A stretch of DNA of 64,000 nt from Polyangiaceae bacterium (GCA_033763455.1 JANRKO010000059.1:18375-82374), one strand, 5' to 3'; counted from the first letter of the stretch, positions 28,422-60,658 are shown. Made by a program: numbers and translations. The notes: a model not told the origin generated them from the letters alone.

Positions 28422-28505
28422 GCGAAGGTGGCGGAACTGGCAGACGCACTAGCTTGAGGTGCTAGCGGGGTTATTCCCATGGAGGTTCAAGTCCTCTCCT
28501 TCGCA
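28422..28505 (+). tRNA. tRNA-Leu (anticodon GAG), CCA not encoded
   Basis: Acceptor GCGAAGG/CCTTCGC + A; anticodon stem CTAGC-TTGAGGT-GCTAG; long variable arm; GGTTCAAGTCC T-arm. Confidence 0.95.
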
Positions 28506-29495
28506 CAAAGGCATTCTAATCGGGGAGTTGCCGACCCCAGCTAGGCGCTCCCGAGCGCTAGCGGGGTAGGGGGCTGGTTTCTGGCCCGGCGGGGTGAAGC
28601 CGGTGGGGCCAGCGCCGGAGAGAGCACGCCGTGCGGCGGCTTGGTTGGGGCGCACGTAGATGGCCGTGGTCGAGATACGGGTGTGGCCGGCGACGAACGC
28701 GGCGCCATTAAGGTTGGTTTCGGCGAGCTGGGTTAGGCGAGCTGAGCGGAGGTCATACGCCGTGAAGGTCTTGGCTTTGGCGGGGGTGAGCACGGCTGCT
28801 GCCGCGGCCCTCAGCTGATCGCGGTAGTCATGGTCGCCGAAGATCAAGCCGTGATCTGGAAGAATGGAGTCGAGCGCCGCGCACGCCTCAGGGCTGAGAG
28901 GAACTTCACGGCTGAAGCGTGCCTTGTCTATGTCCTCGGTGATGGTGAGCGACGTAGCGCCGCGGGTATAGTGCTCGGGTACGCTGAGTGCGTTAAGCGT
29001 GGCCGGTCGCAGAGAGGTTTCAAATGCGACCACGAAACGAGCCCGGATGGGGAAGCGGGAGACCCGCAGGGATTCGGACCATTCGGGTAAGCAGTTAATT
29101 AGTAAACGACATTCCTCAACGCCCAACTCGGTGGATTTGCCACGACGGCGCACACCAAATCGCGTCCCGGTGGCTCGGCGTGCAGGTTTGGGAATAACCG
29201 GAGCTGCGTCGACGTAGCCTTGCTCTTGGCACCAAGCTAAGAACCCCCGCAATGCAGAAAGTTCCTTATTGACCGTCGTTTTGAGGACACTCCCGAGCCT
29301 GTGGCGCATGTAATCTGCCGCCCGTGCTGAAGTGATGGCACCCAAGGTCTTGAAGAAAGGTGCAATGTGGGTGGCACCGTACGTCATCAGGTAGAGATTG
29401 TTCGTTTCTGGGTCGCGTTCGTTCGTAGTTTCCGTGATCCAGCGAGACCAGAGTTCGTCCACGGGCGTGTCAGGGTTGATGGTCCAGGTGCTCAT
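28449..29495 (-). CDS. tyrosine recombinase/integrase (integrated, C-terminally short form)
   Basis: TVNKELSALRGFL, catalytic R (SLRP), K (DKAR), YDLR (Y in place of H of HxxR), GHT, Y (TTAIYV); 3' end runs through attL antisense to the tRNA. Confidence 0.9.
   Translation of the reverse strand: MSTWTINPDTPVDELWSRWITETTNERDPETNNLYLMTYGATHIAPFFKTLGAITSARAADYMRHRLGSVLKTTVNKELSALRGFLAWCQEQGYVDAAPVIPKPARRATGTRFGVRRRGKSTELGVEECRLLINCLPEWSESLRVSRFPIRARFVVAFETSLRPATLNALSVPEHYTRGATSLTITEDIDKARFSREVPLSPEACAALDSILPDHGLIFGDHDYRDQLRAAAAAVLTPAKAKTFTAYDLRSARLTQLAETNLNGAAFVAGHTRISTTAIYVRPNQAAARRALSGAGPTGFTPPGQKPAPYPASARERLAGVGNSPIRMPLCEGEDLNLHGNNPASTSS
28452..28610 (+). repeat. attL (left direct repeat)
   Basis: 156/159 identical to 60500-60658; begins in the anticodon arm. 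Confidence 0.92.
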
Positions 29496-29911
29496 TGTTT
29501 TGCTCCGCTATTGGTTCTGGTGCGCATTTTTTCGAGGGCAGCACGTTCGCTCGCCGTCTTTTCCGAGAGTGGCCGCAGCTGGGTGCTGTATCGAACCACG
29601 GTGTCGATCGCGTTTGCTGCCGCGCTCGCGGGATCTTTTGTTGCCTCCGGCGCCCGCGTAAGGGCGGCAACGAGCGCGCTGCCGGTTGCGTCTATGCTGC
29701 TCCCTAGTTTGGCCCCCGCGTCCCGTATCGCATCCACCAACGACAGACCAACGCCTTGCGCAACCAGCCCTAGATCTTGCACGGCATCAACCACCTGCTT
29801 AATATCGATATCGTTGGTGGCTGGTGTGCACTTGGGTGCTGCGTTTGGCATGGCCGGGCTATGCTCCTTGGCTACGTGGGTCAGATTAGCCCCACCAGAC
29901 CAGGCGGTCAA
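29492..29911 (-). CDS. hypothetical protein translationally coupled to integrase
   Basis: Stop overlaps the integrase ATG; no recognised domain; start uncertain. Confidence 0.5.
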   Translation of the reverse strand: MTAWSGGANLTHVAKEHSPAMPNAAPKCTPATNDIDIKQVVDAVQDLGLVAQGVGLSLVDAIRDAGAKLGSSIDATGSALVAALTRAPEATKDPASAAANAIDTVVRYSTQLRPLSEKTASERAALEKMRTRTNSGAKQ

Positions 29912-29934
29912 TCAAAATAGATAGGAGGCGGAAA

Positions 29935-29960
29935 GGACATTAGGGAGCTCCTAAATGTCC
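29935..29960. promoter_or_regulatory. 26-bp imperfect palindrome, candidate operator between divergent genes
   Basis: GGACATTAGGGAGCTCCTAAATGTCC, 11 of 13 positions complementary. Confidence 0.5.
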
Positions 29961-30024
29961 AGATTGCTCAGAGGGTGCGTGAGCCTCGCCGCATACTTGG
30001 TAAGGTAGTTGCAATTCCTCATTT

Positions 30025-30660
30025 TTGGTGAATAATCCAGCCGTGACAGCCCCTGCACTTGTTGACCCCGCTGAACTTACGGCAGTTCGTGATCAGTTGT
30101 TCAAGTGGCTGAAACAACACGGGTACACCCAAGCCGCGTCCGGCAAAGCCTGGTTTGAGAGCAAGGAATTTAGCAGTTCGGAGCCGCGGGGGAGCTTGGC
30201 CTACATCATTAGTCGGGCCCTTTTTTCAGTTTCGTCTGCGCACGTGAACATCAAACGTTCGGCCACCACAGAGGCATTGACCCAGGCCGCCTTGGTCCGT
30301 GCACGCGTGGTTTCCCTCCAGCAGGCTTTGCGCGGCCTTGATGCCGACAGGGCTCGGAGGGGTTTGCCTACCGCAAGACCCTCCTTTGCCGAATCTGGCG
30401 ACGCCGTGCTTGAGGCCATAAACGCCGTCGTCCAGAGGTTTCAGAGCATCCAAGGAACCACGGTGCCGGTAACCCGTGCTCAGTGGAAACGCTACATCGC
30501 CAAGACAACAACCTCTTTGCAAAAAGCAGGCATGCCCCTGGAAGATATCGCCCGGCTGCTCGCCCCATCGAGTGATCCGGCGGTCTTCAAGGATCGCGCG
30601 CGAAAGCAGCGCGAGCGGGGCACCGTGCAAGGTGCTGGGGTGGAGAAGAAAAAGCGCTAG
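30025..30660 (+). CDS. hypothetical protein, possible C-terminal DNA-binding helix
   Basis: 211-aa ORF divergent from the int operon; GMPLEDIARLL resembles an HTH start. Confidence 0.5.
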   Translation: MVNNPAVTAPALVDPAELTAVRDQLFKWLKQHGYTQAASGKAWFESKEFSSSEPRGSLAYIISRALFSVSSAHVNIKRSATTEALTQAALVRARVVSLQQALRGLDADRARRGLPTARPSFAESGDAVLEAINAVVQRFQSIQGTTVPVTRAQWKRYIAKTTTSLQKAGMPLEDIARLLAPSSDPAVFKDRARKQRERGTVQGAGVEKKKR

Positions 30661-30720
30661 ATTTTGGCAAGTGGCTCCGGAACGGTGGGGCCGTGAGCTG
30701 GCGGTGGGTGAAAGGCTTTT

Positions 30721-30856
30721 GCGCCGTCCCTGAGCCGGCGGTCGTGCGGGACGTTCGTGGTGTAGGTGATCGAAATTGCGCCATAGTTGTGGGCGGTGGG
30801 CGTCACCGAATTGGTTTGATGCCCTCCTCAGCTGCCGCACGAAGCGGCCGCTTGCC
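30721..30856. repeat. copy B of ~136-bp dispersed repeat
   Basis: Matches 15550-15685 in the same orientation. Confidence 0.85.
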
Positions 30857-31244
30857 TCGGCTCTCGGACTTGATCGAAGCGGCCGGCGACGTGAAGGGTA
30901 AGGGTGCCAAACGATCTAGTGGACAGGCGACTCTGGAAGCCGTCGGGGAGGCCGAAATCGAGCAGGCTTGTCGGACCGCTATTAAGCCAGTCAGGGGCTA
31001 GCCCCTGGGCCACGCCGACATCGGCAACGGCTTCTGAAAGTCCCTTCGGCAGCGGTTGCGCGGTGAGGAGAGTTCCGTGTTCCAGCAAGGCGAAGACGTC
31101 GAGATCCTTCGTCGGCCGTTGCAGCACGCCAAGAAGAAGGAGGCTGCCGCCACCGATGACAACCAGCTCGGCAGAGAGGCTTCTCTCCTCGAGTAGCTCG
31201 CCCAATGTGACAAGGGCATCCTCAAGAGACGCTGCGGAGACCAT
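30828..31244 (-). pseudogene. DUF6036-like nucleotidyltransferase, 3'-truncated
   Basis: LVVIGGGSL...RPTKDLD...DWLN.GP motifs; sequence ends shortly after GRFDQV, where repeat copy B begins. Confidence 0.65.
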
Positions 31245-31532
31245 GATTCGAGAGTCTCGCTGCTCGTATCAAGAAAATAAAGTTCTCGATTTAGGTAGTT
31301 AAACTTCTCGATTTTCAGCGGCCCATACCTGTCACGCAGCAGGCATGGGGAGCGCACAGGTCTCACGGGCCGGACGGTCGACCCTTGTTTTTGTGGGTCT
31401 TGGAGCGTCAGCCGAGAGCGAAGGCAGCCAGACCCACAAAACTTTGTTGCGCCGGTCACGCTTCGCTTCGGAGTCGCCTACATTCATCGGAGTGGCTTAG
31501 TCTCAAAGGTTCAACGCCCAAACCCAAGACCC

Positions 31533-32251
31533 ATGATGAAGCTGAGCATTCCCCGCCGAGCACTCCTGCCGTTGGCTCTGTTCGTGAGCGCGTGCGCCCC
31601 CGGCGCTGGAACGCAGGCTCATGACATGAGCGCGGCCCGGCATTTGGCCGCAGCCAAGCAGGAGGATGACCTAGCGTCGCAGCACGCCCCCGGAGCCAGG
31701 GAGCCCCGCACTCGGTGCACTCCGAGCCAAGGCCGCGTGTGCTGGACTGGACGGACAGACACGCCTGACGGCCATCAGCACACCGCCGAGGAACATCTTG
31801 AACTGGCGGCTAAACACCGTGCGGCCTCGAAAGAGCTCATGGACGCTGAGGCACACGCGTGCGCTGGCCTGAGCGATGAAGATCGCGACACGAGCCCCTT
31901 CGCTCACAGCGCTGACATTGAGAGCGTGACCGAGCTTAGGGAAAATGCTCGGCCTGCTAGGGTGAACGTCGGGCGAGATGCTGCGACTCGACTCGCTGGA
32001 GCAACCATTGTGTTTCGCGCCTCACCAGGCCTGACCGTTGAGTGGCTGCAGCGCATTGTGGATTGCCATCTGGCGCGCAACGTGCGGTGGGCCACGATAT
32101 GCCTGAAATGGCCTATTGCCCCCTCGTTCCTCGCGGTGTTGCCGCCAAAGTTTACTCCGCTCGGCGTGGGTTTGCGGTCGACGTCCGCTCGGACGACCCA
32201 GAGATCGCTGCTGAGATCTGGAAACGTGCCCAACAAATTGGAGCAAAGTAA
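31533..32251 (+). pseudogene. His/Cys-rich lipoprotein family copy 1, frameshifted near 32082
   Basis: Paralog of 45003..45719; after DCHLARN the conserved AVGHDMPEMAYCPLVPRG...AEIWKRAQQ continues in another frame to 32251. Confidence 0.8.
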
Positions 32252-32432
32252 CGATGAGCTGTCCTAAGTGCGAGCCCTCGCCCAAGAGTCGCTGGTGGAA
32301 GTGGCCCGCAACCGCCGTCCTGTTAGCGGCAGCCTTGGCCTGGCTGGCAAGCTCTCAAACGCCGTCGCACAGTGTTGGAGAGCCGGCTTTGGGTAGCTCT
32401 GCAGAGTCAAAGTGAGCCTAAAAGGAGCTTGA

Positions 32433-33788
32433 GTGAAAATGGGAAACGACGGATTGAACCGACGAGAAGCTGTGTTCAAATGTGCCGCCATTGCGGGAGG
32501 TGCGGCACTGCTCGCCACCAGACCCGTGAAAGCCGCAACTGGCGACAGCACGCACTCTTGGGAAAAGAGCTACAGCGGTGGAACGCTCGCTGTGAAGGCG
32601 TTACCTCCAGGTGACCCTGGCCGCGACTACACACCCACGATCACCCCCGGAGGTGCTACTGCTGTTTGGAAAATCGTCGAGGGTGTCAAGGTATTCCATC
32701 TTATTGCCGAGGAGGTGTTGCACGAGTTTGCTCCCGGCCTGAAAGGGAAATGCTGGGGCTATAACGGGGGAGTGCATGGCCCGACGATCGAGGCGGTCGA
32801 AGGCGATCGTGTTCGCATCTACGTTACTAACAAGCTTCCCGCATCTACTACCGTGCACTGGCACGGAGTGTTTCTTCCAAATGGAATGGACGGCGTGGGA
32901 GGGCTGAACCAACGTGCTATCCAGCCTGGGGAAACGTTTATGTATGAGTGGACGTTCCGACAATCAGGAACCCTCATGTATCACTCACATCATGACGAGA
33001 TGACCCAAATGGCGATGGGAATGCTCGGAATGATCGTGGTGCATCCGCGGCGTCCTCCACCAGGTTATCGTGTAGATCGCGAATTTGTCATCATGTTGAG
33101 TGAGTGGAAAATCACACCGGGTACGCTGCGCCCGGATCCCAACGAGATGACCGATTTTAACGTGCTCACCATGAACGCCAAGGTGTTTCCGGCTACGCCG
33201 CCGCTGGTATGCAAAACGGGTGATCGAGTGCGCATTCGTTTCGGCAATTTGAGCGCCATGGATCACCACCCCATTCATCTGCACGGGCACTATTTCAAGG
33301 TAGTAGCGACTGATGGCGGCGCCATTCCCGCGGCCGGGCAATGGCCGGAAACCACCGTTTTGGTGCCGACTGGTAGTACGCGTGACATAGAGTTTGTCGC
33401 GGATGCGCCTGGCGACTGGGCGATGCACTGCCACATGACTCATCACGTGATGACTCAGATGGGGCACGGCATTCCGAACATGATCGGCGTGAACACGGAT
33501 AAGCTGGACGGACGTCTGAGCGCGCTCCTCCCAGGCTACATGAGCATGGGGCAATCCGGCATGGGTGACATGGGTGGGATGCAGATGCCAGTGCCGAAAA
33601 ATAGTATCCCGATGGTCGCCACACCCGGACCCCACGATGGCATCACCATGGGAGGCATGTTCACGCTCGTGAAGGTGCGCGACAATTTGAAAAGCTACGA
33701 CGATCCAGGTTGGTACCAAAATCCCCCAGGAACCATGGCGGATGTGGCCACCAAAGCCGCGCTTTTGCGTGATGGGATCAAAGTATGA
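32433..33788 (+). CDS. multicopper oxidase (copper resistance type), Tat signal
   Basis: NRREAVFK twin-arginine; HWHG, MYHSH, HPIHLHGH, HCHMTHH; Met-rich C-terminal region. Confidence 0.92.
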   Translation: MKMGNDGLNRREAVFKCAAIAGGAALLATRPVKAATGDSTHSWEKSYSGGTLAVKALPPGDPGRDYTPTITPGGATAVWKIVEGVKVFHLIAEEVLHEFAPGLKGKCWGYNGGVHGPTIEAVEGDRVRIYVTNKLPASTTVHWHGVFLPNGMDGVGGLNQRAIQPGETFMYEWTFRQSGTLMYHSHHDEMTQMAMGMLGMIVVHPRRPPPGYRVDREFVIMLSEWKITPGTLRPDPNEMTDFNVLTMNAKVFPATPPLVCKTGDRVRIRFGNLSAMDHHPIHLHGHYFKVVATDGGAIPAAGQWPETTVLVPTGSTRDIEFVADAPGDWAMHCHMTHHVMTQMGHGIPNMIGVNTDKLDGRLSALLPGYMSMGQSGMGDMGGMQMPVPKNSIPMVATPGPHDGITMGGMFTLVKVRDNLKSYDDPGWYQNPPGTMADVATKAALLRDGIKV

Positions 33789-35263
33789 AGGCAAGATCGC
33801 ATGGTTTGAATGGGGCGCGTGCAGGGCTTCGCGAGTTCCCGCGCTCCGCGCTTGGCGGAACCTTTGCGGCGGTGGCGCTTGTGGGGTTGCAGGCCTGCGT
33901 CCCGGCGAACGCTGGGTACGAAGATGTTCGGCAACTTACTTCGGCACGCATACATCAGGATGTGCGCTGGTATGAGCACGATTCGGCCAGCAACGTCGAT
34001 AAAGATACATCTGCCTTGATGCGGCGTCCCCTGAACGCGAACGCGGCGGTTCAAATCGCTCTGCTCAACAATCAGGGGTTGCAGGCTGCCTTCGAGGAGC
34101 TCGGAATTGCTCGAGCGGGCCTCGTGCACGCGCTGCGCCTTCCGAACCCAACGGTGGATGCTGCCCTGCGTTTCAAGGGTTCGAGCGAGCCAAACATCGA
34201 TGTGAACGCTCTGGAGGATCTCTCCGAGTTGCTCTACCTTCCGTTGCGCAACGGAGTAGCGAACGCTCAGCTTGAGGTGGCGAAGGCGAGTGTGGTCGGG
34301 CGTGTTTTAGACCATGCGTTCGAAGTGCGCTCAGCATTCTATGGCTATCAAGCGTCGGCCCAGATCTTCGAGCTCGCGCGCAGTGTGCTCGGGGCGGCGC
34401 AGGCTTCCTCCATCGCGAGCCAACAATTGCACGAAGCCGGCAATATCACTGATTTGGCTCTTGCCAGCGAACGCGCGCTCTACGAGGAATCGCGGCTTTC
34501 CTACATGCGCGCCGAAGCAAGCCTCCATGCGCAACGTGATGCGCTCAATGCTCTCATGGGCCTTTGGGGAAAGAACACAGGTTGGACCGCGGAAGCACGG
34601 CTACCTGAGCCAAGCGCAATCACCAGCGTGCTCGACAAGCTAGAGCAACGGGCGCTCGCCAATAGCTTAGATCTGCAGGTAATCAGGCATCGGGGTGACG
34701 CGGCCGCTAAGCGCGCGCATCTGGCGACCCTGCAAGGATGGCTTCCGGAACTCAAGGCAGGGGTGTCCGCGGAGCGGGATGAGCAGGGCGCATGGGGCGT
34801 TGGCCCCGCCGCAGCGATTGCAGTGCCGCTCTTCTATCAAGGGCAAGGCGAGTCGGGCGCGGCGCTGGCCGAAGCGCGCCAGCAGCAAAAGCTTTTTGCC
34901 GATACCGCCGTACAAATTCGCGCCGCTGCCAGAGCGGTCGCCACCGAGCTCGCCGCTGTCGCCAAAAGTGTTGGGTATGTCAAGTCCACCTTGCTGCCGT
35001 TGCGCGCTGAGATCGTAGACGGCACACAACTCCAATACAACGCAATGGGGGTCGGTGTTTCCCAGCTCATTCAAGCCAAGCGCGATCAAATCACTACGGC
35101 GCAGACCTATGTCACCCTCCTGCGAGACTATTGGACCTTGCGCGCCGAAGCCGAAGCGCTGGTGGCGGGGCGCCTGCCTAAGCGCGGCCTAACGTCGGAG
35201 GAAGCAACCCGTGACGCCGCCTCTTTCGAACAGGGGCGCACTGGCGGTCTCCGGCAGCATTAG
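33785..35263 (+). CDS. TolC-family outer membrane efflux lipoprotein
   Basis: Lipobox LQAC; AVQIALLNN.GLQA, two OEP-like helical repeats; coupled to the oxidase. Confidence 0.88.
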   Translation: MKARSHGLNGARAGLREFPRSALGGTFAAVALVGLQACVPANAGYEDVRQLTSARIHQDVRWYEHDSASNVDKDTSALMRRPLNANAAVQIALLNNQGLQAAFEELGIARAGLVHALRLPNPTVDAALRFKGSSEPNIDVNALEDLSELLYLPLRNGVANAQLEVAKASVVGRVLDHAFEVRSAFYGYQASAQIFELARSVLGAAQASSIASQQLHEAGNITDLALASERALYEESRLSYMRAEASLHAQRDALNALMGLWGKNTGWTAEARLPEPSAITSVLDKLEQRALANSLDLQVIRHRGDAAAKRAHLATLQGWLPELKAGVSAERDEQGAWGVGPAAAIAVPLFYQGQGESGAALAEARQQQKLFADTAVQIRAAARAVATELAAVAKSVGYVKSTLLPLRAEIVDGTQLQYNAMGVGVSQLIQAKRDQITTAQTYVTLLRDYWTLRAEAEALVAGRLPKRGLTSEEATRDAASFEQGRTGGLRQH

Positions 35264-35320
35264 AAATTAGTTGTTAACTTGGATTCAATTACCCTCGTTT
35301 GAACAAAAAGGACGACTAAA

Positions 35321-35779: not shown

Positions 35780-35838
35780 GTGGCGTAGCGTGACGGGGGT
35801 CTGGACAAAAGATCAGAAAGACAATCTGGCTTCTGCGC

Positions 35839-37586: not shown

Positions 37587-37609
37587 CCGAGAGCAAACGA
37601 CGCCACCTC

Positions 37610-37835: not shown

Positions 37836-37905
37836 GCGCCGCCGTGACGCCGCGTTGGCTCCCGCGATTCGGCGGCGTACGGGGCCGTCAAACTCCGCGC
37901 GAAGC

Positions 37906-39102
37906 ATGACCCTTCTCGTTCGCTCTCGTGAATGCCACGCTGTCGGCCAACAGCCGTTCGAAGTCGTCGAGCGCAAAGGTATCGGCCACCCGGACACCAT
38001 CTGCGACGCCGTTGCAGAGCACATTTCCCAGCAGCTCTGCCGCTATTACCTACAGCACTTCGATCACGTCCTGCATCACAACGTCGACAAGGTGTTGCTG
38101 TGTGGCGGAGCTGCTCGCCCGACATTCGGCGGGGGCGAAGTGCTCGCCCGGATCGAGATTTACTTGGCAGGGCTTGCCACGACGCAGGTGGGCGACAAGA
38201 GCATTCCCGTCGCCGAGATCGCAATCGAGGCCTGTCGCGAATGGTTGCAGGAGAATCTGTCCGAGCTCGACGTCGCGCAGCAGGTTCGGATCCATTCCAA
38301 GTTGCGGCCGGGCTCCCACGGCCTAACGGAGCTCTTCCTGCGCGGCTCGAGCCTGCCGCTCGCGAACGACACGTCGTGTGGCGTCGGCTTTGCACCCCTG
38401 ACTGATCTCGAAAGCCTGGTGCTTGCGGTCGAACGGCGACTGAACGAGCCCGCGTTGAAGCGCCTGCATCCGGAGCTTGGCTCGGATGTGAAGGTGATGG
38501 GCGTACGTCGCAGTGACGACATCGAGCTCACTGTCGCGTGCGCGATCGTGTCGCGTCATGTGCCCGATTTAGCTGCGTATTTGGCAGCCAAGGACTTGGT
38601 CGTCCAGCTCGTCCTCGCGACGGCTGCCCAGACCACCAAGCTCCACGTCAGCGTGATCGTCAACGCCGAAGACGTGCCCGAGCGCGGCGAGCTCTTCCTT
38701 ACGGTTACAGGGACCTCGGCCGAAGCAGGCGACGATGGCGAGGTCGGGCGCGGCAACCGCGCCAATGGGCTCATCACTCCGTATCGCCCCATGACGCTCG
38801 AGGCTGCGGCTGGCAAGAACCCGGTCAATCACGTCCGGAAGCTTTACAACCTGGCGGCAGGTCGAATGGCGGAAGCGCTCGTGGAACTTCTGCCTCAGGT
38901 TCAAGACGCCAGCTGCGTGCTCGTGAGTCGGATTGGCGAGCGCATCGACGAGCCTCAGGCCACCGACATCGAGCTTGGACTCGACGACCCTTCCCAAGCC
39001 GAATCGCTCACTCCCCGCGTCATCGAAATAGCGCGATCCGTGCTCCAAAATCTACCACGTCTCCAGCGCGGGTTGCTGGAGGGCACCGTGACCGTCTTCT
39101 AG
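37906..39102 (+). CDS. archaeal-type S-adenosylmethionine synthetase (methionine adenosyltransferase)
   Basis: [55 protein letters not shown]. Confidence 0.9.
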
Positions 39103-40748: not shown

Positions 40749-41513
40749 ATGAACATGATTCGCTCAATCTGGTACACATCAACTCTCAGTTTGCTCGCAG
40801 CGGCATGCGCATCGACTCCGGGCGCAAAACCGCACGACATGAGCGACGCGCAGCACGAGCGAGAAAGCCAATCGCAAGGCGCCACGGCGGACGCTCACGC
40901 AGCCCAGTACGACTCGAATGCGAGGGTCGAGCGCTGGCGGTGCTCGCCCAGGGGAGGCGGGCGCGCCGGTGCAGAGTTCGGCGGATGTTGGAGCTCCGTC
41001 TTGAACCCAACGACGGCGCATCTCCACGCCGCCGAGGATCACCGGCGGCAGGCGGCAGATCATCGTGCGGCCTCTGCTGCCCTCCGCGGCGCTGAAGCTC
41101 GAAGCTGTGTCGGCATCAGTTCCGACGACCGGGACATGAGCCCGTTCGAGCACGTGGAGGACATCACAAGCGTGGAGCCGTTGATAGACCGCAACGGCAG
41201 CAGCGTGGCACCCTCCCTGCGGACGGTCGGAGCAATCGTCACGTTCCGCGCGGTTCCCGGCATGACGTCGAAGTGGTTGCAACGCGTGATGGACTGCCAC
41301 CTTGCCCGCAATGCCTCGCTTGGTCATACGGTGCCCGAGATGCCGAACTGTCCGCTCGTCCTGAAAGGAGCCCAAGCGCGCGTGACTGCAACAGGCAACG
41401 GATTCGCGGTAGCGATTCGTTCCGACGACCCTGCTACGGCGCGCGAGATCCTGTCGCGTGCAGAGCGACTTCACGCCGCAACCGTTAACTCCGCGGCATC
41501 AACAACTAGGTGA
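40749..41513 (+). CDS. His/Cys-rich lipoprotein family copy 2
   Basis: RBS AAGGAAGG; lipobox AAAC; HDMS..QH, DRDMSPF, WLQRVMDCHLARN, GHTVPEMPNCPLV. Confidence 0.85.
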   Translation: MNMIRSIWYTSTLSLLAAACASTPGAKPHDMSDAQHERESQSQGATADAHAAQYDSNARVERWRCSPRGGGRAGAEFGGCWSSVLNPTTAHLHAAEDHRRQAADHRAASAALRGAEARSCVGISSDDRDMSPFEHVEDITSVEPLIDRNGSSVAPSLRTVGAIVTFRAVPGMTSKWLQRVMDCHLARNASLGHTVPEMPNCPLVLKGAQARVTATGNGFAVAIRSDDPATAREILSRAERLHAATVNSAASTTR

Positions 41514-45002: not shown

Positions 45003-45719
45003 ATGAAACTTTCACTCTCGCGCTTAGTTCTACTTCCCCTAACCCTGGCTGCTGGAGCCTGCGCGCACTCCGCGGGGACCGCTCCGCATGAGATGAGCGC
45101 GGCGGAACACCAGGCTGCCGCCCAGAACGAAGACCAACAAGCGGGAGGGCACGAAGCGCAGTATGACGCGAACGCACGGCAGTCTACCGTCTCATGCAAA
45201 CCGAGCAGGGGTCGCGTCTGCTGGACGGCATGGGAGAACCCGACCAAGGAGCATAATGTTTCGGCGGCAGAGCATCACGAGCTCGCGGCCAAGCACCGCG
45301 CGGCCTCCAAAGAACTCGCTGATGCTGAGGCCCGTGAATGCGCCGGTCTGAGCGACGAAGATCGCGATGTCAGCCCATTTGCCCGCGGGGCTGATATCTC
45401 AAGCGTTGCACAACTCAAGGAGGACAAGCGTGTCGGCAAAGCTTCGGTGTCGCGCGAAGCCGGGGCGACGATCGTCTTTCGCGCGGCGCCAGGGCTGACC
45501 GCAGAGTGGCTACAGCGCATCGTTGATTGCCACCTCGCCCGAAACTCTGCGGTCGGGCACGACATGCCAGAGATGTCCTATTGCCCACTCGTCCCACGCG
45601 GAGCGCAGGCGAAAGTGCACTCGTCCGGTGATGGCTTTGCCGTGGATGTTCGTTCTGACGACGCGGAGACTGCCGCTGAGATATGGAAGCGGGCGCAGCA
45701 GCTCAGCATCAAGCCTTGA
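45003..45719 (+). CDS. His/Cys-rich lipoprotein family copy 3
   Basis: RBS AAGGA; lipobox AGAC; lies between csoR and the tolC-cusB-cusA genes. Confidence 0.85.
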   Translation: MKLSLSRLVLLPLTLAAGACAHSAGTAPHEMSAAEHQAAAQNEDQQAGGHEAQYDANARQSTVSCKPSRGRVCWTAWENPTKEHNVSAAEHHELAAKHRAASKELADAEARECAGLSDEDRDVSPFARGADISSVAQLKEDKRVGKASVSREAGATIVFRAAPGLTAEWLQRIVDCHLARNSAVGHDMPEMSYCPLVPRGAQAKVHSSGDGFAVDVRSDDAETAAEIWKRAQQLSIKP

Positions 45720-53218: not shown

Positions 53219-54604
53219 CTAAGGCCTGAGCGCCCGAATCAGGGGAGCTTTTCCGAGCGGAGTTCTGGTGACCGCCGAGACGATTTCGACTTGCACGCGT
53301 GGTGGGTCCGCGCCCGCGTCTCGGAGAGCCTGCGTCACCGAAGCCACGAGTTCCTCTTCTTGAACGGGCTCTTTTGGGTTGCTGAGTAGGATGCGCACAA
53401 GGTTGAGCTCCTGGATAATCTGCCACTCTTGGACACGCAACGGCTCAAGCAGGCGATGAAATACGTTGGGGTGGATCACCACGTCGCTTCCCGCAACGGT
53501 GTGCATAACGAGCGAATCCTCCGCGCGCCCTTCGATGCCAGAAAGCAGTCTGAACGGTAGCCCGCAGTCACAGGTGTCCGTTGAGAGACTCACGCAATCG
53601 CTCATGGCGTAGCGTATGAGAGGCTGGGTGCGACTGAACAATACGGTAACGAGGATCTTGGCCCCGGGAGTACCCGGAGGTACCGGTCGGTCCTGTTCGT
53701 CCACCACCTCCGGAATCACTAGATCCTCGTAGAGATGCATCCGGTGGCGCCGGCAATCGGACGCGACCCCCGCGGTCTCAGTTGCCGCATAGACGTTGAA
53801 CGGCGAAGTGCCCCAGGCGTGCTCGATCCGTGCCGTGCCCTCCGGGGTGAGCACCTCGGACGAGCACATCACCGCACGGGGCGAAATCCGCAGGCGACCA
53901 GCGAGTTGCTCCTCGGCGAGCACGCGTGCCATGGACGCATACGCGACTAGATTCTCGGGCCGCCATTCGTTCAAGCCGGCCACAATTTCCGCCAGTGGTT
54001 GCGTCGCATCGAAGCGGTGGACGGGAATGAAGGGACTATCCACGCTCATCCCGACCCGAGATGACTGATGCCATGGCACACGCGAGCTCACGACAGCGAG
54101 CCGGGTCCTCTGCGTCAAACTTGCATGGATACCCGCCCATTCCTGTGCCCTCGCGTAGGACGCGATGACGGTGGCCCACTCACGACGATCCGCGAGGAAG
54201 ATGCCCGGGTGCCCCGTGCTGCCTGAGGTGCGGGAGACCCAGAATTTTCCTCGGAATCGATCGTTCGAGCGAAGTGTCTCCAGGTAGCGCTCAACGTCGT
54301 TGAGTCGAACTTCAGGGGAGGTTACCAGTTCGTTGAAGCTGGACATAAGCTCGGTTTTAGTGAGAATCGGTAACTCACCGAGCGGCTTTCCCTCCAGGCC
54401 GCGGTGAAACCGCCTGTAGAACGGGGAGCGTGCGTAAGCAAAGCGACGAAGGCGCTCCAACTGCCTGGCCTGAAACGCTTCAAGCTCACTCCGGGACCAG
54501 CGCTCGTGTGAGCGCAGCCGCCTTCGATTCCAAAGTACGCTGAGAATAAGCCGAGTGTCCACGGTTTCGAACGTTCTCGCGCCCGGCAAACTAGCCGAAA
54601 CCAA
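53219..54604 (-). CDS. phenylacetate-CoA ligase/CapK-like adenylate-forming enzyme
   Basis: LPILTK, TSGSTGHP, YAATETA, PLIRY, IEGRAED. Confidence 0.85.
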   Translation of the reverse strand: MVSASLPGARTFETVDTRLILSVLWNRRRLRSHERWSRSELEAFQARQLERLRRFAYARSPFYRRFHRGLEGKPLGELPILTKTELMSSFNELVTSPEVRLNDVERYLETLRSNDRFRGKFWVSRTSGSTGHPGIFLADRREWATVIASYARAQEWAGIHASLTQRTRLAVVSSRVPWHQSSRVGMSVDSPFIPVHRFDATQPLAEIVAGLNEWRPENLVAYASMARVLAEEQLAGRLRISPRAVMCSSEVLTPEGTARIEHAWGTSPFNVYAATETAGVASDCRRHRMHLYEDLVIPEVVDEQDRPVPPGTPGAKILVTVLFSRTQPLIRYAMSDCVSLSTDTCDCGLPFRLLSGIEGRAEDSLVMHTVAGSDVVIHPNVFHRLLEPLRVQEWQIIQELNLVRILLSNPKEPVQEEELVASVTQALRDAGADPPRVQVEIVSAVTRTPLGKAPLIRALRP

Positions 54605-54673
54605 ACCGAAACGGAAGATCGACGATCTGACGCGGGTCGTTTACGACGCCAGATCACCAAAAGGACACACCCG

Positions 54674-55390
54674 ATGAAACTCGCTATCTCGCACCTGATT
54701 CTACTTCCCCTAACCTTCGCTGCCGGGGCGTGTGCTCCCGCTGCGGGCACTCAAGCGCACGAAATGAGCGCCGCCGAACACCAAGCGGCAGCGAAGCAGG
54801 AAGAGAGCGATGCCGAAGCCCACGCGGCAAAATATCACCCTGAGGCCCCGGCCGTTGGGGCTGCGTGTAAGCCCAGCAGGGGGCGCGTCTGCTGGACGGA
54901 ATGGGAAAATCCGAGCAAAGAGCATCAAATTTCGGCCGCCGAGCATCACGACCTCGCGGCTAAGCATCGTGCAGCATCTAAAGAGCTCACGGAAGCCGAG
55001 GCCAGCGCATGCTCAGGTCTCAGTGACGAAGATCGGGATATTAGCCCCTTCGCCCACGGGGCTGATATTTCAAGTGTCACGCAACTCAAAGAGGAAAAGC
55101 GCGCCGGCAAAGCCACAACGACGCGCGACGCTGGTGCGACCGTTGTTTTTCGCGCGGCGCCAGGCTTAACCGCCGAATGGCTGCAGCGCATTGTGGATTG
55201 CCACTTGGCAAGAAACGCGGCTGTGGGACACAATATGCCACAGATGTCGTACTGCCCGTTGGTGCCACGCGGGGTGCAGGCGAAGGTGCACTCATCCGGC
55301 GGCGGCTTTGCCGTCGACATTCGTTCTGACGATCCAGAGACGGTCGCTGAGATATGGAAGCGAGCTCAACAACTAAAGATTAAGCCCTGA
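54674..55390 (+). CDS. His/Cys-rich lipoprotein family copy 4
   Basis: RBS AAGGA; 238 aa, collinear with and very similar to copy 3. Confidence 0.85.
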   Translation: MKLAISHLILLPLTFAAGACAPAAGTQAHEMSAAEHQAAAKQEESDAEAHAAKYHPEAPAVGAACKPSRGRVCWTEWENPSKEHQISAAEHHDLAAKHRAASKELTEAEASACSGLSDEDRDISPFAHGADISSVTQLKEEKRAGKATTTRDAGATVVFRAAPGLTAEWLQRIVDCHLARNAAVGHNMPQMSYCPLVPRGVQAKVHSSGGGFAVDIRSDDPETVAEIWKRAQQLKIKP

Positions 55391-55687
55391 AAGCCGCGGT
55401 GCCGTTGGTATGGTGAAGCGCAGTACTGGGCCTGGGGCTTCTGCGTCTCCGCTGTCCTAGGTCCGAGCAACCAAAGTAGGGCATGGAAAGGCATGGCGGC
55501 GGCAGCGCCCGTGCTCCCCAAACGGTGTAAGTAGCAGGGCAGCCGGAGGTGTAGCCTCCTTAGGATACGCAAGTTGCGCGTCGAGACGCAAAAGCGGCGC
55601 GGAAAATGCGCGGTGGCCCACCACCTATACGGTGTCGTATCCACCGAAACTGTGGTGAAGCAAGCCGAACGCCCGCAGTCGGCGGAC

Positions 55688-55703
55688 TGGCATGCTCCTC
55701 GCA
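55688..55703 (+). promoter_or_regulatory. possible sigma54 promoter
   Basis: TGGCATGCTCCTCGCA (GG-N10-GC) ~50 bp upstream of ATG 55754. Confidence 0.45.
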
Positions 55704-55753
55704 AAGGCGCACCTTGTCATCGACCTCACTACTTCAACTGGAACGAGAACCTG

Positions 55754-55984
55754 ATGCGAACCACATCACCTAAAGAAGAGATCCAAGACGAGCTCGTCGC
55801 TGCCCGTGCCTACGAAAAATGGCAGCAACGGGGCTGCCCGCTGTGGGAGTCCGCACTGGACTGGAGTGCCGCCCGAGCTGAGCTGGAGCAAGAGTTGGAA
55901 ACAGGGGCAGCACAGCCTCCACAAGAACGCAAGTCATTCACTGAGTCGCGTCCCACTAGTGAGGCACACGCCTTCGCACATTGA
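55754..55984 (+). CDS. DUF2934 domain protein (second copy)
   Basis: VAARAYEKWQQRGCPLW...DWSAARAELEQ. Confidence 0.75.
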   Translation: MRTTSPKEEIQDELVAARAYEKWQQRGCPLWESALDWSAARAELEQELETGAAQPPQERKSFTESRPTSEAHAFAH

Positions 55985-56094
55985 ACTTGAGGGAGAGAAC
56001 GATAGAGCCCGAACGCGTGCCGGAGGGCACCTGATCTCTGGGGGCGGTGCGCGGGGGGGACGCTTCAGGATACGTTTGTGGTAACCTGCGGAGC

Positions 56095-57135
56095 ATGGCA
56101 GATGCTACGTTTCGGGACCGGGCGATTGGCGGCCCTTTTTTGATCGCAGTGGCGCTCATCGCGACAGCTTGCGGCGGGCGGGCCGAGTCGGATGGCCAGG
56201 CTGCCACGAACGCGGTTCCCACTTCTCCCGCTTCGCCCCCAACGCTGGTCGCTCCCGCGATGTCGGGCTCGCCAGCACTGCCGCGCCCTATCGATCTGAA
56301 ACAGGTACAATTCTCCAAAGTCGTGGCAGGGAAGTTGGGATACTTCTGCGGTATTGAAATGAGCGGTGCTCCGGGCACCACCGCAGGAACGCGATCGCCG
56401 AGCGTTCCTGCGGGCAGGTTGCTCTGTGTTCAAGACGAACAGCTCGTCAAAGAAATGCCGGGGCCGTACATCGACGTTTCCTTCAATCACGACTTGGCAA
56501 TATGGGAATACCTTTGCGCCGTGCGGGATACTGGCACGTTGGAGTGTGGGTCCGACACAGACATCAACACAGGTATCACGCTTTCATTGCCAGCTAACCG
56601 TTTTACAGCCGTTGCGGTGAGCTTTTTCAATGCCTGCGGGCTCGATGATCAGGGCAAAATGCACTGTTGGACGTCCGAGGTCGCCGGGGGGACGAAACCG
56701 CTCGAGGGATCTTTCGGTCGACTTGCCGTTGCGATGTATCACGTTTGCGCAACCCAGAAAGAGCTCCCGGTTCACGTCGATTGTCGTGACAAGACAGGCA
56801 GTCAACGCCTGCTTGATTCTGGCTTCTTTGACGTCGCCGTCTACTCTCAGGGGGGATGCGGAGCGGGCCTTTTCCCGGTCGTCGGTTTGATCTGCTGGGA
56901 CGACGCATCACCCGCCGAAAGAGTGGTGGCAAAGGGCACGTTCGTCCAAGTGAGCATGAACCTGGCGGGGCAGGGTTGCGCCCTTTCCGACGTTGGCCTT
57001 CCCACCTGTTGGCAGGGGAGCGATGTTTGGGTTCCAAAAGGGGTAAGTGGGCCGTTGCACGGAATTTCGGTAGGGCCGGAGCACACGTGCGCTCTCGATG
57101 CTGAAAGCCACGTTAAGTGTTGGAGTGGGCGTTAA
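56095..57135 (+). CDS. RCC1/BLIP-II-like repeat lipoprotein
   Basis: Lipobox ATAC; repeated C.L...G...CW units ending ISVGPEHTCALDAESHVKCW. Confidence 0.7.
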   Translation: MADATFRDRAIGGPFLIAVALIATACGGRAESDGQAATNAVPTSPASPPTLVAPAMSGSPALPRPIDLKQVQFSKVVAGKLGYFCGIEMSGAPGTTAGTRSPSVPAGRLLCVQDEQLVKEMPGPYIDVSFNHDLAIWEYLCAVRDTGTLECGSDTDINTGITLSLPANRFTAVAVSFFNACGLDDQGKMHCWTSEVAGGTKPLEGSFGRLAVAMYHVCATQKELPVHVDCRDKTGSQRLLDSGFFDVAVYSQGGCGAGLFPVVGLICWDDASPAERVVAKGTFVQVSMNLAGQGCALSDVGLPTCWQGSDVWVPKGVSGPLHGISVGPEHTCALDAESHVKCWSGR

Positions 57136-57154
57136 GCCCGAAGGAGCGCATCCC

Positions 57155-58426
57155 ATGCCACCTACCGCAGATCTGCTGAACCGCGAGTGCGCTTGCCTTA
57201 CCGTTGATCAGCAAGCCCTCGAAATGCTCCTAGATCGAGGGGGCGTGGATGGCCTGTACGGTTCGATCCTTGCCAAGCAGCCGCATCTCTTTTCATCCGT
57301 CCCGGTCTTCCTGTCGCGGGCAAACGCTGAAGCTGTGGCGGCTACCGTGTCTGCGATCGAGCGAGTTGTCGCGATCCCTTCCTATGCTGCGGCCGCCATC
57401 GCGCGTGCTCCCCATAGTGCCGCGCTTCGCTTCGGGCCACACGGCGTTTTCTATGGCTACGATTTTCATCTCGGAAGCGATGGGCCGAAGCTAATCGAGA
57501 TCAATACCAACGCGGGCGGTGCGTTGCTCAACGCAATTCTAGGGCAGGCCCAAAAAGCGTGCTGCCCGGAAATGGCCGCGCTCAGCTGCGGTGAAGAGCC
57601 GCTCCAATCGCTGGAGGATGCATTTGTGGCAATGTTCCGGCGTGAATATGCGTTGCAACGGGGCCATGCGCCACTGCGTACGGTCGCCATCGTCGACGAC
57701 GATCCAGAGGCGCAATACCTGCATCCCGAGTTCCTGCTGTTCCAGCAGATGTTCCGCGCGGCCGGGCTGGAGGCGCACATCGTGAGCGGAAGAGAGCTCA
57801 CCTTCGAGGCCGGCGCGCTCAGCGCTCAAGGGCACACTATCGATCTGGTTTACAATCGCCTCACCGATTTTTATTTTGAGGATGAGGAACACCGGGCGCT
57901 CGGCGAGGCGTATGCAGCGGGGGCAGTTGTCGTCACCCCTAATCCGTTCGGGCACGCACTTTACGCCGACAAACGAAACTTGGTAACGCTCTCGGATGCG
58001 GATCGACTTGCCACTCTCGGTGCCGACACCGCCACCATTTCGACATTACTTGCGCACGTGCCACGCACGCTGGAGTTGACGTCCGAAAACCGTGAAGCAA
58101 TGTGGAAGGAGCGGAAGAAGTATTTCTTTAAGCCTGTAGCCGGCTACGGCGGCAAAGCAGCTTACAGAGGGGATAAGCTCACAACGTCGACGTGGGCCGG
58201 AATGGCTGGCCGAGAGTATGTAGCGCAGGAGGTTGTGCGCCCAACTGAACGCACGATAGCTCTCGAAGGTCAGCGGGTCGCTCTCAAGTTGGACCTTCGC
58301 GCGTACGTGTACGACGGGAAGGTCCAGCTTATGGCGGCGCGGCTTTATCAGGGGCAGACAACGAATTTTCGCACCGCTGGCGGAGGCTTTGCGCCGGTAT
58401 TCACGGAATGCGCGACGACCAGATAG
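57155..58426 (+). CDS. ATP-grasp amide ligase-like protein (circularly permuted / GSP-synthetase-like)
   Basis: RBS AAGGAG; GYDFHL...KLIEINTNAGG, VYNR, FFKP..GYGGK, YVAQE, DLRAY. Confidence 0.7.
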   Translation: MPPTADLLNRECACLTVDQQALEMLLDRGGVDGLYGSILAKQPHLFSSVPVFLSRANAEAVAATVSAIERVVAIPSYAAAAIARAPHSAALRFGPHGVFYGYDFHLGSDGPKLIEINTNAGGALLNAILGQAQKACCPEMAALSCGEEPLQSLEDAFVAMFRREYALQRGHAPLRTVAIVDDDPEAQYLHPEFLLFQQMFRAAGLEAHIVSGRELTFEAGALSAQGHTIDLVYNRLTDFYFEDEEHRALGEAYAAGAVVVTPNPFGHALYADKRNLVTLSDADRLATLGADTATISTLLAHVPRTLELTSENREAMWKERKKYFFKPVAGYGGKAAYRGDKLTTSTWAGMAGREYVAQEVVRPTERTIALEGQRVALKLDLRAYVYDGKVQLMAARLYQGQTTNFRTAGGGFAPVFTECATTR

Positions 58427-58465
58427 GCTTTCTTTCCACGCGCACTGCCATCGCTGTTATTGGCC

Positions 58466-59551
58466 ATGACTAAAAATCCAATCGCACATAGCAGTGTCAT
58501 CGCCATGCTGGCCGCGGTGCTGTTCGGGGTAACGACGCCACTCGTCAAATACTTTGGCCAAGGTGCCGGCGCGTTCGCTACGGCAACGCTGCTCTATGCG
58601 GGCGCCGCAGTGGGTGCAGGCTTGCCCAAACGTCGACCGAACGAGCAAGCGCTGGGTCGCGCGCAAATACCTCGGCTTCTGCTGGTTGCCTTCTTTGGCG
58701 CAACGCTTGCTCCAGCAGCGTTGGCTTTTGGTCTCAAAGGTGCGGGCGCGCTCACGGCCTCACTGCTCCTCAATCTTGAAGCCGTTTTCACGGTGCTTTT
58801 GGCGTGGCTGTTCTTTCGAGAGCCCGTTGGCAGGCGTGTGCTTGTGGCGGCGACACTGATGGTGGCGGGCGGAGCCGTTCTCGCCCTGCGCGTCGACCAT
58901 GGCGCGGATTCGAAGGCACTGGCCTTTTTGGCGCTATGTGGGGCGACGTTCGGCTGGGCGCTGGATAACACCTTGACACGCCCACTCGCTGATTTCGATC
59001 CGCAGGCTGTAGTATTTGGGAAGGGTGGGAGCGGTGCGGTGCGTTCTCTCGCAGCAGCTTTCCTGTTGCGCGATGCATGGCCGCAGCGTACGGCCCTCGT
59101 TGCACTGTTAGTTTGCGGCGCCACCGGCTACGGTTTGAGTTTACGCCTTTATTTGCGCGCACAGCGTGCGCTCGGCGCTGCGCGGACGGGTTCGCTCTTT
59201 GCGTTTGCCCCGTTTGTTGGCTCAATCGTAGCTTTTGCACTTGGTGATCGCGCGGGCATGGAGTTCGTCGCCATCGCCGCTCCGCTCTTTGGTATAGCCG
59301 TGTACCTTCACCTCACGGAAAGCCACCACCACCTTCATTCGCATGGGGCAATGGACCACGATCACACGCATACCCACGACGACGGTCATCACCTGCACGC
59401 TCATGAGCCACCGATCGGCGGCTCACACAGTCATCCCCACCACCACGACCCGCTAGAGCACGAGCATTCGCACGGCTCTGATTTGCATCACCGACATGAG
59501 CACGAGGGCGCTCCTATGACACAGCCTTCGGGCATTCCCCCCGAGCGCTGA
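58466..59551 (+). CDS. DMT/EamA transporter with His-rich C-terminal tail
   Basis: ASLLLNLEAVFT, WALDNTLTR, multiple TM helices; tail HHHLHSH...HEHSH..DLHHRHEH. Confidence 0.88.
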   Translation: MTKNPIAHSSVIAMLAAVLFGVTTPLVKYFGQGAGAFATATLLYAGAAVGAGLPKRRPNEQALGRAQIPRLLLVAFFGATLAPAALAFGLKGAGALTASLLLNLEAVFTVLLAWLFFREPVGRRVLVAATLMVAGGAVLALRVDHGADSKALAFLALCGATFGWALDNTLTRPLADFDPQAVVFGKGGSGAVRSLAAAFLLRDAWPQRTALVALLVCGATGYGLSLRLYLRAQRALGAARTGSLFAFAPFVGSIVAFALGDRAGMEFVAIAAPLFGIAVYLHLTESHHHLHSHGAMDHDHTHTHDDGHHLHAHEPPIGGSHSHPHHHDPLEHEHSHGSDLHHRHEHEGAPMTQPSGIPPER

Positions 59552-59777
59552 ATCCCACGCCGCTCGCAGACGCGGTGCAGTCGCTGGCGTTCGCGATGCG
59601 GTCGCAGCTGCATACCTAGCGAAGGTCATATAGGCAGGGTTGCACTACGACACCACGTGCGAGCTGGCGTGACGAGGTCGCTTCCGGAAACGAGCGGTTG
59701 GCGTCTTTCGAGGGCTCCGGTGGCATAGATTCGCCACCATCATCGCGAATACAGCCGAATGCTACGCCACCCGTCGC

Positions 59778-60077
59778 CTAAAATCGCCGAAACCTGCCAT
59801 TGCGTCGCCGAAAGCGCTGCACCCTCGCGTCCCAAGCGCCCGCTCGTGAAAGCACCAACGAAAACACACCCGTCCCAGCCGCGAGGAGTGCCGCCCCCCA
59901 ACCGGCACCACGCGTACTCGGCACGGGCGCATCCTTGACGAGCGCGGTTGTTAACATTGTGGAGCCCAACTGGCGCGACATGTTTCGCGCAAGCACGGTG
60001 GGTTGTGGCGACGTCTCGTCCGGTCGCGAGACCCCACCTTGAGTAGTTGAATTAGGCGTACATTTTCGGTTTTTCAT
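59778..60077 (-). CDS. hypothetical protein
   Basis: GGAG before ATG 60077; no recognised domain. Confidence 0.3.
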   Translation of the reverse strand: MKNRKCTPNSTTQGGVSRPDETSPQPTVLARNMSRQLGSTMLTTALVKDAPVPSTRGAGWGAALLAAGTGVFSLVLSRAGAWDARVQRFRRRNGRFRRF

Positions 60078-60166
60078 GTGATTGCTCCGTATTGGTTATG
60101 TGTCTTTCGGCTGAATGCAGTTGAGAAGCCGCTGTTCCCAAGGTGGCAAATTCCCACCTGAGTCTT

Positions 60167-60499
60167 TCAAGCGCCGCTTCGTTCCTGCGTTGGAGGGACA
60201 ACGCGTCGCTCATGCACCGGGTCGCCGACTACGAGCCTCGCCAGCTCGAGCGCTCGCCGTGGCGCAAAGAGCCCGCCATCCAGAACGGCGAGGGCAAGCC
60301 GTCCGGCGTCCGAGAGTTCCAGGCAGGCGCGAGCGAACGCGCGGAGCCGTTCCAACTCCGGGGTCCGTTGGCTCGCGGCCAGATCCAGGAGGGCCTGAGC
60401 CTCTCCCGTGAGAACCGCCAGGGGCTCTGGGCCGAGCCCGTCGGGGAGCCAGCGACCGACAACGGGTTGGCCTTTCAGTGCATCGGTAGAAAGCGTTTG
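60167..60499 (-). other. detached 3' coding segment of the integrase (110 codons)
   Basis: In frame with the att-encoded peptide ...LNLHGNNPASTSS shared with the integrase C-terminus. Confidence 0.7.
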
Positions 60500-60658
60500 G
60501 CTTGAGGTGCTAGCGGGGTTATTCCCATGGAGGTTCAAGTCCTCTCCTTCGCACAAAGGCATTCTAATCGGGGAGTTGCCAACCCCAGCTAGGCGCTTCC
60601 GAGCGCTAGCGGGGTAGGGGGCTGGTTTCTGGCCCGGTGGGGTGAAGCCGGTGGGGCC
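60500..60658 (+). repeat. attR (right direct repeat, includes tRNA-Leu 3' half)
   Basis: 156/159 identical to 28452-28610. Confidence 0.92.

Follow-up and report, generated by a model that had tools for sequence, protein, structure and literature searches.

Myxococcus phage Mx8 carries its phage attachment site (attP) within its integrase gene, int, and integration gives that gene a new 3' end which, in the consulted sections of a review, is described as altering the specificity of the enzyme rather than inactivating it (PMC6070905). The accessible text of the Islander paper likewise has the integrases of Mx8 and SSV extending across attP (PMC4383910), and these two sources bear out an earlier note on the DNA studied here, which had named Mx8 and the archaeal SSV1 as precedents for an attP within int (PMC6070905, PMC4383910). 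Archaeal viruses and plasmids have 'suicidal' integrases of the SSV1 type, again with att within int, and the gene is partitioned on integration (PMC8371274, PMC5861418); according to the excerpts consulted, the enzyme may be inactive once split, and suicidal integrases are exclusively archaeal (PMC8371274). Mycobacteriophages BPs and Brujita, as outlined in a further source consulted in part, have integration-dependent immunity with attP inside the repressor gene (PMC9262239). The locus described here lies in a stretch of 64,000 nucleotides of Polyangiaceae bacterium DNA (GCA_033763455.1, JANRKO010000059.1:18375-82374), hereafter the window, from the first letter of which all positions are counted. 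It holds a 32-kb copper-resistance island inserted in a tRNA-Leu(GAG) gene, and our reading, to which we assign a probability of about 0.78, is that its tyrosine integrase carries attP inside the int frame, 3' of the catalytic Tyr, such that a C-terminal tail is cut off on integration.

The single tRNA found in the window by ARAGORN, tRNA-Leu(GAG) at 28422-28506 on the plus strand, is intact, with positions 1-30 being chromosomal and positions 31-85 being supplied by the island at the left attachment site (attL), as judged from the ARAGORN call and the repeat boundary at 28452. A direct repeat of 170 nt with 96% identity links 28452-28621, the attL copy, with 60500-60669, the initial 81 nt being identical on base-by-base comparison. 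The displaced tRNA-Leu 3' fragment that forms the core of the right attachment site (attR) at 60500-60554 (plus strand) is the same as tRNA positions 31-85 at 55 of 55 nt. The tRNA gene and this fragment frame the island of ~32 kb, and the full tDNA and displaced fragment bracket an integrase gene, which is the arrangement by which Islander elements are defined. The earlier note had taken the repeat to be the tRNA half; that half is indeed present in both copies, but the repeat is not the tRNA half alone, as the 55 nt of the tRNA are followed by 115 nt that extend beyond the tRNA 3' end and code for the integrase linker.

The repeat begins at tRNA position 31, i.e. two bases into the 5' strand of the anticodon stem. 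Because the identity of attL and attR starts at 28452 and 60500, respectively, and because in natural long forms of the integrase the conserved peptide ends ...ASTS with divergence thereafter, the crossover region is probably at the anticodon loop (28454-28460). In having a tRNA gene, a displaced 3' fragment, an adjacent tyrosine integrase and cargo in between, the island is like ordinary Islander-class tRNA islands with an anticodon-centred site, as these are presented in the consulted part of the Islander paper (PMC4383910). The int gene of such islands, however, normally ends before attP, whereas that of the window crosses it.

The integrated form of int (28449-29495, minus strand) encodes 348 aa followed by a TAG stop at 28451-28449. 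It runs antisense across tRNA positions 31-85, yielding ...LCEGEDLNLHGNNPASTSS, and the stop lies just outside the repeat, in the chromosomal half of the anticodon stem; comparison of the repeat and the open reading frame (ORF) thus agrees with what the earlier note had described. The protein matches the Pfam family Phage_integrase (PF00589; 30.1 bits against a cut-off of 27.1, residues 149-285) and the integrase family phrog_1 of PHROGs (8.8e-23). Its AlphaFold2 (AF2) model, with a mean predicted confidence (pLDDT) of 87.4 and values >90 up to about residue 295, has 40 fold matches in the PDB at E<=1e-3 by Foldseek, including XerA, XerH, Tn1549 Int, IntI, lambda Int and Brujita Int (5vfz), although a phmmer search of PDB sequences with the 348-aa protein gave no match. 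Model and fold matches together reveal a two-domain fold, comprising core-binding and catalytic domains.

The folded core comprises residues 1-292 (28620-29495, minus strand) and carries R163, K191, Y247, R250, H271 and Y280. Five of these, R163, K191, R250, H271 and Y280, which are taken to be catalytic by motif and by what is known of the family rather than by superposition, are invariant in 51 aligned sequences and are all kept in the 348-aa form, as had been proposed. Y247 (codon 28755-28757, in the motif YDLRxxR) occupies the His-II position and is nearly invariant in the family; in tyrosine recombinases, this second-box position is usually His. The remaining residues, 293-348 (28452-28619, minus strand), form a disordered linker (residues 296-348 having pLDDT values of 43-61), of which the last 18, LCEGEDLNLHGNNPASTS, are the antisense reading of the tRNA. 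Since the repeat starts 12 codons past Y280, the att core sits downstream of the catalytic Tyr inside int.

At attR the same peptide is found in a minus-strand ORF of 173 aa (60167-60688), in which the frame continues, as the earlier note had stated, with QTLSTD...ERSGA for 110 codons (60499-60170) before a stop at 60169-60167. An open frame of this length is within chance: in a 330-nt openness control, 11% of shuffles of the tail stretch (60167-60499, minus strand) and 16% of arbitrary window frames stay open, the stretch is 69% G+C and other frames across it are also open. The case for a real tail therefore rests on homologs and on selection. A search of 1.84 billion cluster representatives at E<=1e-3 gave 72 relatives of the tail, 15 of them at E<=1e-10. 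Three of the 72 are fused to integrases, 11 are short and begin with the tRNA-Leu antisense peptide, and five begin with other tRNA-like peptides, so that 16 are orphans behind a tRNA-like peptide, as at attR of the window; 47 others start within 30 residues of the domain and six occur in other contexts, two of these without a match to the tail profile.

A locus search with a 12-row alignment of the tail gave only three loci. Comparison of the window with four genomic copies of the tail (one in locus L003, two in L004 and one in L005) gives ratios of nonsynonymous to synonymous substitution (dN/dS; Nei-Gojobori) of 0.08-0.60 over a 55-codon core, consistent with purifying selection, for which the earlier note had suggested a test. 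For the window and L003 the ratio is 0.12, the two differing at 13 first, 8 second and 31 third codon positions. The AF2 model of the tail, made with a 46-row alignment, has a four-helix domain at tail residues 26-92 (60224-60424, minus strand), with helices at 26-42, 49-61, 64-74 and 79-92 and pLDDT values of 96-97 over residues 31-90; the 25-residue lead-in to the helices is poorly predicted. Judged from these sequence comparisons, the tail is a real domain under selection. It matches no Pfam or PHROG family, its model has no Foldseek match at E<=1e-3 (best E 2.2 in the PDB and 0.45 in BFVD), and tblastn against phage and plasmid collections gave no match. Assignment of the tail as RecO_C, a minority label in the ESM Atlas with a best score of 0.81, was rejected because that score is too low for an assignment.

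Joining 60499 to 28452 in silico keeps the frame and gives one ORF of 458 aa with a single terminal stop, as the earlier note had anticipated; use of the attR copy of the repeat in place of the attL copy changes three residues. The 458-aa product aligns in a single high-scoring segment pair with each of the 11 natural long integrases tried (414-434 aa; 47-58% identity), e.g. with its residues 1-447 against 1-423 of the 428-aa protein P0162. The 348-aa protein has 239 relatives in a homolog search, and the counts that follow are from the best 120 of these 239. A strict tRNA-Leu antisense peptide is present in 39 of the 120, of which 21 stop one residue past ...ASTS, like the window integrase, 17 continue for 61-100 residues and one continues for 11. 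A direct search for longer tail carriers gave only three matches; the count of fused forms is instead taken from a hidden Markov model (HMM) of the tail run over the same 120 homologs, 40 of which have the tail domain at the C terminus, after a tRNA-like peptide. Homologs of the tail thus occur both fused to integrases and as orphans beside tRNA-like segments, which is where they had been expected. Each of the tests by which the earlier note could have been refuted was made, and none went against it.

At this locus, integration severs a conserved and folded tail from an integrase that retains its full catalytic set, and on excision the two would be rejoined in frame. In the free circle, int would code for 458 aa, comprising the core (1-292), a disordered linker, the 18-residue antisense-tRNA segment, a second short linker and the four-helix tail. 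After crossover in the anticodon loop, int would end at a TAG that comes from the chromosomal side of the anticodon stem and would encode the 348-aa protein, with all its catalytic residues; the tail would be left 32 kb away at attR, and excision would bring both parts together again. The comparisons made here establish this geometry and frame, show that the fused form and its tail are conserved, and reveal modular swapping of att cassettes among relatives. It is a more tentative proposal, at somewhat less than even odds, that the long and short proteins differ in activity like Mx8 Int and IntX, such that integration itself would alter the enzyme. By analogy with Mx8, the tail would most likely promote the reaction of attP with the bacterial site, attB, through synapsis, arm assembly or core contact, and the tail-less enzyme would be a weaker or differently directed recombinase, stabilizing the integrated state.

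With Mx8 Int/IntX (IntP/IntR) the window integrase shares the position of attP inside int, 3' of the catalytic region, and the change of the Int C terminus on integration. The size of the tail is also similar; according to Tojo et al. in 1996, 112 residues of the Mx8 protein are reportedly replaced by 13. In the Mx8 record AF396866, the int minus strand at ~6405-6470 has the T-arm, acceptor and CCA of a tRNA and, behind them, a hairpin and a run of T, so that Mx8 int also reads antisense over a tRNA 3' end. This tRNA-like end came to light through a chance alignment and inspection of the sequence, and Rfam made no tRNA call in the 3' part of Mx8 int at a permissive E. The use of a tRNA half as antisense coding sequence, to which the earlier note had drawn attention, is therefore true of the window but not new, as Mx8 int does likewise.

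Despite these similarities, the two integrases have no detectable similarity by BLASTP (best E 0.77), nor does the window tail with Mx8 (BLASTP E 1.9; hhalign probability 0.14%), and the Mx8 record is absent from the tblastn matches of the integrase at 1e-5. The sole match in the phage collection, MW202476, is 44% identical but stops shortly past the catalytic Tyr and is without the tail. The att core of the window starts at the anticodon loop, whereas that of Mx8 starts at the T-arm; integration in the window is, unlike that of Mx8, a pure truncation with no replacement residues; and the element is a cargo island without recognisable phage genes, whereas Mx8 is a temperate phage. The tail of the window further differs in belonging to a conserved family with 72 relatives. 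The principle is thus known already from Mx8, but the family represented by the window integrase is a distinct one, apparently large, whose tail domain is new and whose cassettes can be swapped.

Unlike the SSV1 type, the window keeps every catalytic residue in one 348-aa product. With phages BPs and Brujita and corynephage CyranoPS, as far as the consulted excerpts describe them, it shares an attP that lies in a coding gene overlapping a tRNA 3' end, the removal of a C-terminal part, a stop codon derived from host bases beside the common core, and the lack of an evident recombination directionality factor. In the same excerpts, however, these phages lose a short degradation tag from a repressor, whereas the window loses a folded 67-residue domain, together with linkers, from an integrase. 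We found no description of this integrase family in the literature searched, whose coverage excluded subscription journals.

The natural long forms reveal how attP and coding sequence may coexist. Among 17 Leu-type long forms, including the virtual 458-aa product of the window, the mean pairwise column identity is 0.67 in the recombinase core, 0.20 in the linker before the att core, 0.85 in the tRNA-coded segment, 0.17 in the linker after the att core and 0.59 in the tail domain. Two folded, conserved modules hence enclose ~86 poorly constrained codons (residues 293-378, i.e. the two linkers and the att core), a span about the size of an ordinary attP, given in the consulted part of the Islander paper as ~250 bp (PMC4383910). 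Because these codons are little constrained, are attP-sized and are flanked by folded modules, we infer that the DNA sites of attP are placed where the constraint on the protein is lowest, occupying the least constrained part of int.

The tail comes after at least five kinds of tRNA-like peptide. The Leu type is present in 18 long forms, the RTSTG type in 11, the RTSTxFR type in four and the GLEPP type in two; in three long forms the peptide is read in sense (..RFESS..), and two have other types. Proteins P0022 and P0040 are identical at 376 of 430 residues, with nearly the same cores and tails, but their residues ~306-352 are unrelated, being of Leu type in the one and of RTSTG type in the other; the lengths of the two proteins are one residue apart and the frame is kept. 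On its sequence, this difference is a swap of the att cassette within the ORF, and a swap that preserves the frame points to selection for keeping the fused arrangement.

A wider reading, which we consider doubtful, is that these integrases constitute an undescribed, large modular family of core, att cassette and tail, in which attP lies in a disordered linker, cassettes of at least five peptide types, in both orientations, are swapped between targets with the frame unbroken, loss and restoration of the tail record the state of the element and set directionality without an excisionase, and stranded tails, as well as arrays of them like that in L004, may act in trans. The lineage is common in soil-type metagenomes and in metagenome-assembled genomes of Polyangiaceae. 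Five proteins in the clade of long forms described below (P0035, P0053, P0055, P0061 and P0069) are without the four-helix tail and share another conserved C-terminal region of ~130 aa after a ..LEPP.. peptide; one of the five has a sub-threshold GntR-type match (E 0.0074), and a second tail family may exist among these integrases. Three others (P0066, P0068 and P0076) form a tail-less subclade ending in -RAAA, -LLAA and -LWAA, which recall the ssrA-like tags that a partly consulted source reports on mycobacteriophage integrases.

Several points weigh against the proposal that attP lies within int and that integration severs the tail. The excised form of the window island is an in-silico junction, with neither a circle junction nor an empty attB seen, and the free state of the long forms is inferred solely from the fact that many of their longest contigs are of 40-45 kb. 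The repeat of 170 nt exceeds the length that a model with attP in int requires. The tail is without a known fold or family, and hence has no assigned role, and its domain is also present in a few non-integrase proteins (P0160, P0169 and P0171). Long and short forms are unevenly divided between clades, with 15 short and one long in the clade of the window and 39 tail-bearing proteins and no ...ASTSS-ending form in a clade of 44. Finally, Pfam and PHROGs reveal no recognisable excisionase, replication or transfer gene on the island. As to the non-integrase proteins themselves, P0160, which also has Cys-rich motifs and a weak HD/YfbR-like match, bears the tail at its C terminus, and the 335-aa P0171 bears it at its N terminus.

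The lack of mobility genes bears on the alternative that survives best, namely that the island is a fixed relic, in which the history of an attP within int is real but the present copy no longer excises, so that there is no switch here; we regard this as unlikely, though it deserves more weight than any other alternative. Without excisionase, replication and transfer genes the island may depend on a helper for movement, or may not move at all. Prim-Pol and D5-like genes, which adjoin the tail in the related island L003, are missing from the window, and the G+C content of the island is the same as that of its flanks (~0.60). As the earlier note had claimed for this metal-resistance island, no phage structural, lysis, packaging or conjugation/transfer family was found, either by Pfam (on 30 ORFs and 22 small ORFs near the ends) or by PHROGs (on 18 ORFs), there being one weak Hoc-like PHROG match (5.8e-4) in a 155-aa island ORF. 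However, int is intact with all its catalytic residues, the frame of the tail is unbroken, attL and attR agree at 55 of 55 nt in their tRNA parts, and decayed copies look otherwise, as with the int fragments of L003, the frameshifted-looking P0017 and the scars in L004.

The int start is overlapped by 4 nt by a conserved companion ORF of 139 aa (29492-29911, minus strand), which matches no Pfam or PHROG family but aligns with the N-terminal extension of the Polyangiaceae integrase P0017 (31% identity, E 2e-9). From its position and sequence, it is a candidate accessory or directionality factor.

It is improbable that the tail is a separate product, such as a small regulator or directionality factor, made from a start of its own or as the 173-aa attR ORF and acting in trans, with the fused reading being incidental. 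That 47 of the 72 tail matches are short proteins starting 30 or fewer residues from the domain, that the attR ORF has an ATG at 60688, that the domain occurs in non-integrase proteins and that a long disordered linker parts tail from core are all consistent with this possibility. However, 40 of the best 120 homologs are continuous through at least five tRNA-like segments, the cassette swap kept the frame, and the orphan tails have no common conserved start. The ATG at 60688 is moreover just 33 nt from a divergent gene starting at 60722, which leaves little promoter room for the attR ORF.

Less probable again is the view that long and short integrases are two lineages rather than two states, the tRNA-like segment not being the crossover site in the clade of long forms. 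The tree bearing on this was a quick IQ-TREE run with support from the Shimodaira-Hasegawa-like approximate likelihood ratio test (SH-aLRT) only, made with 107 of 121 rows, 14 having been dropped as shorter than 300 aa or without the Tyr motif. The 44-row clade (support 99) holds nearly all other long forms, and its lack of any ...ASTSS-ending form, together with the ratio of 15 short to one long in the 18-row clade of the window (support 99; two rows are of other kinds), would fit two lineages; a 33-row outer clade is mostly without the tail. This lopsidedness may stem from differences in how frequently the two kinds are sampled in the free or the integrated state. Against two lineages, the window island holds both halves in frame at its two ends, and the one long form of its clade, P0020, is sister to the short P0006 (SH-aLRT 97); long and short forms as nearest neighbours support two states of one lineage. 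Orphan tails behind tRNA-like peptides of several tRNA types also argue against it, as does P0075, in which an RTSTG-type peptide is followed by non-tail sequence, as expected of an integrated form.

The last alternative, that the 110 further codons are open by chance because the DNA is GC-rich, is refuted, despite the openness of shuffled and arbitrary frames and of the other frames across the stretch, by its 72 homologs, the dN/dS values well below 1 with changes concentrated at third positions, the confident fold, the junction ORF and the natural fused forms.

Returning to the reading of an attP within int, the 115 nt by which the repeat exceeds the tRNA half are most likely the 3' end of an older, related int gene, left beside attR by serial integration at the same tRNA. 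A remnant like the integrase linker is present on the chromosomal side of attR (60555-60676, minus strand), with residues 290-348 of the integrase aligning by tblastn to 60676-60500 at 90% amino-acid identity; no further int fragment was found in the window by tblastn with the integrase. The attR orphans P0127, P0150 and P0156 have unrelated sequence where the repeat of the window has its extra 115 nt. In L003, integrase fragments adjoin the tRNA fragment on its chromosomal side, which parallels the remnant in the window. L004 has, at 5850-10900, four antisense tRNA 3'-end fragments with spacings of 1383, 1634 and 1703 nt, in an array of ~5 kb with three 166-nt repeats (94-96% identity) and two to three copies of the tail; Rfam made no tRNA call in this array at a permissive E, and the array looks like stacked attR scars of serial integrations. 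L005 has an intact tRNA-Arg(ACG), whose sense reading leads directly into a tail.

To our knowledge, Mx8 and its kin were so far the only basis for the notion of a bacterial enzyme that rewrites its own gene, and the same logic is now found in an integrase lineage without detectable homology to Mx8. The family provides a system in which to ask by what means a tyrosine recombinase is tuned by a C-terminal module, how coding sequence can accommodate attP and how integrases come to target new tRNA genes. If the tail is state-dependent as proposed, the protein itself would record whether the element is free or integrated. There are also consequences for annotation: the truncated state of island integrases in this family is annotated as a complete protein, and orphan tails are filed as hypothetical proteins though marking attR ends, so that the tail could serve as a marker of island boundaries.

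Some further observations concern the att region and the cargo. An 11-mer of the tRNA core at 28461-28471 recurs at 28557-28567, 96 nt deeper in the P' arm, with attR copies at 60509-60519 and 60605-60615. Its proposal as an extra integrase site was not upheld, as equally many matches arise in seven of 100 shuffles and L003 has a single copy; it is kept as a lead only. Within 10274-19927 of L003, the tail precedes the replication genes Prim-Pol and D5_N/DUF5906, after which there are defence-like genes (Schlafen AlbA_2, Mrr_cat with HEPN/Toprim, DUF4062 and HNH).

The cargo of the window island (30025-59551; Pfam on 30 ORFs and PHROGs on 18) is of copper-resistance type. By Pfam it includes two multicopper oxidases, two outer-membrane efflux proteins (OEP), a CusB-like adaptor and a 1152-aa RND pump, as well as MgtC/DUF4010, a His-rich EamA transporter and an archaeal-type S-adenosylmethionine (AdoMet) synthetase (PF01941, 1.1e-147; 37855-39102, plus strand), the last being unexpected as cargo of a copper island. 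Four paralogous, lipoprotein-like ORFs of ~240 aa on the plus strand (31533-32267, 40749-41513, 45003-45719 and 54674-55390) match no Pfam family. They are 37-53% identical, with invariant Cys and His columns, and because each adjoins copper-handling genes, they may represent an undescribed periplasmic metal-binding family.

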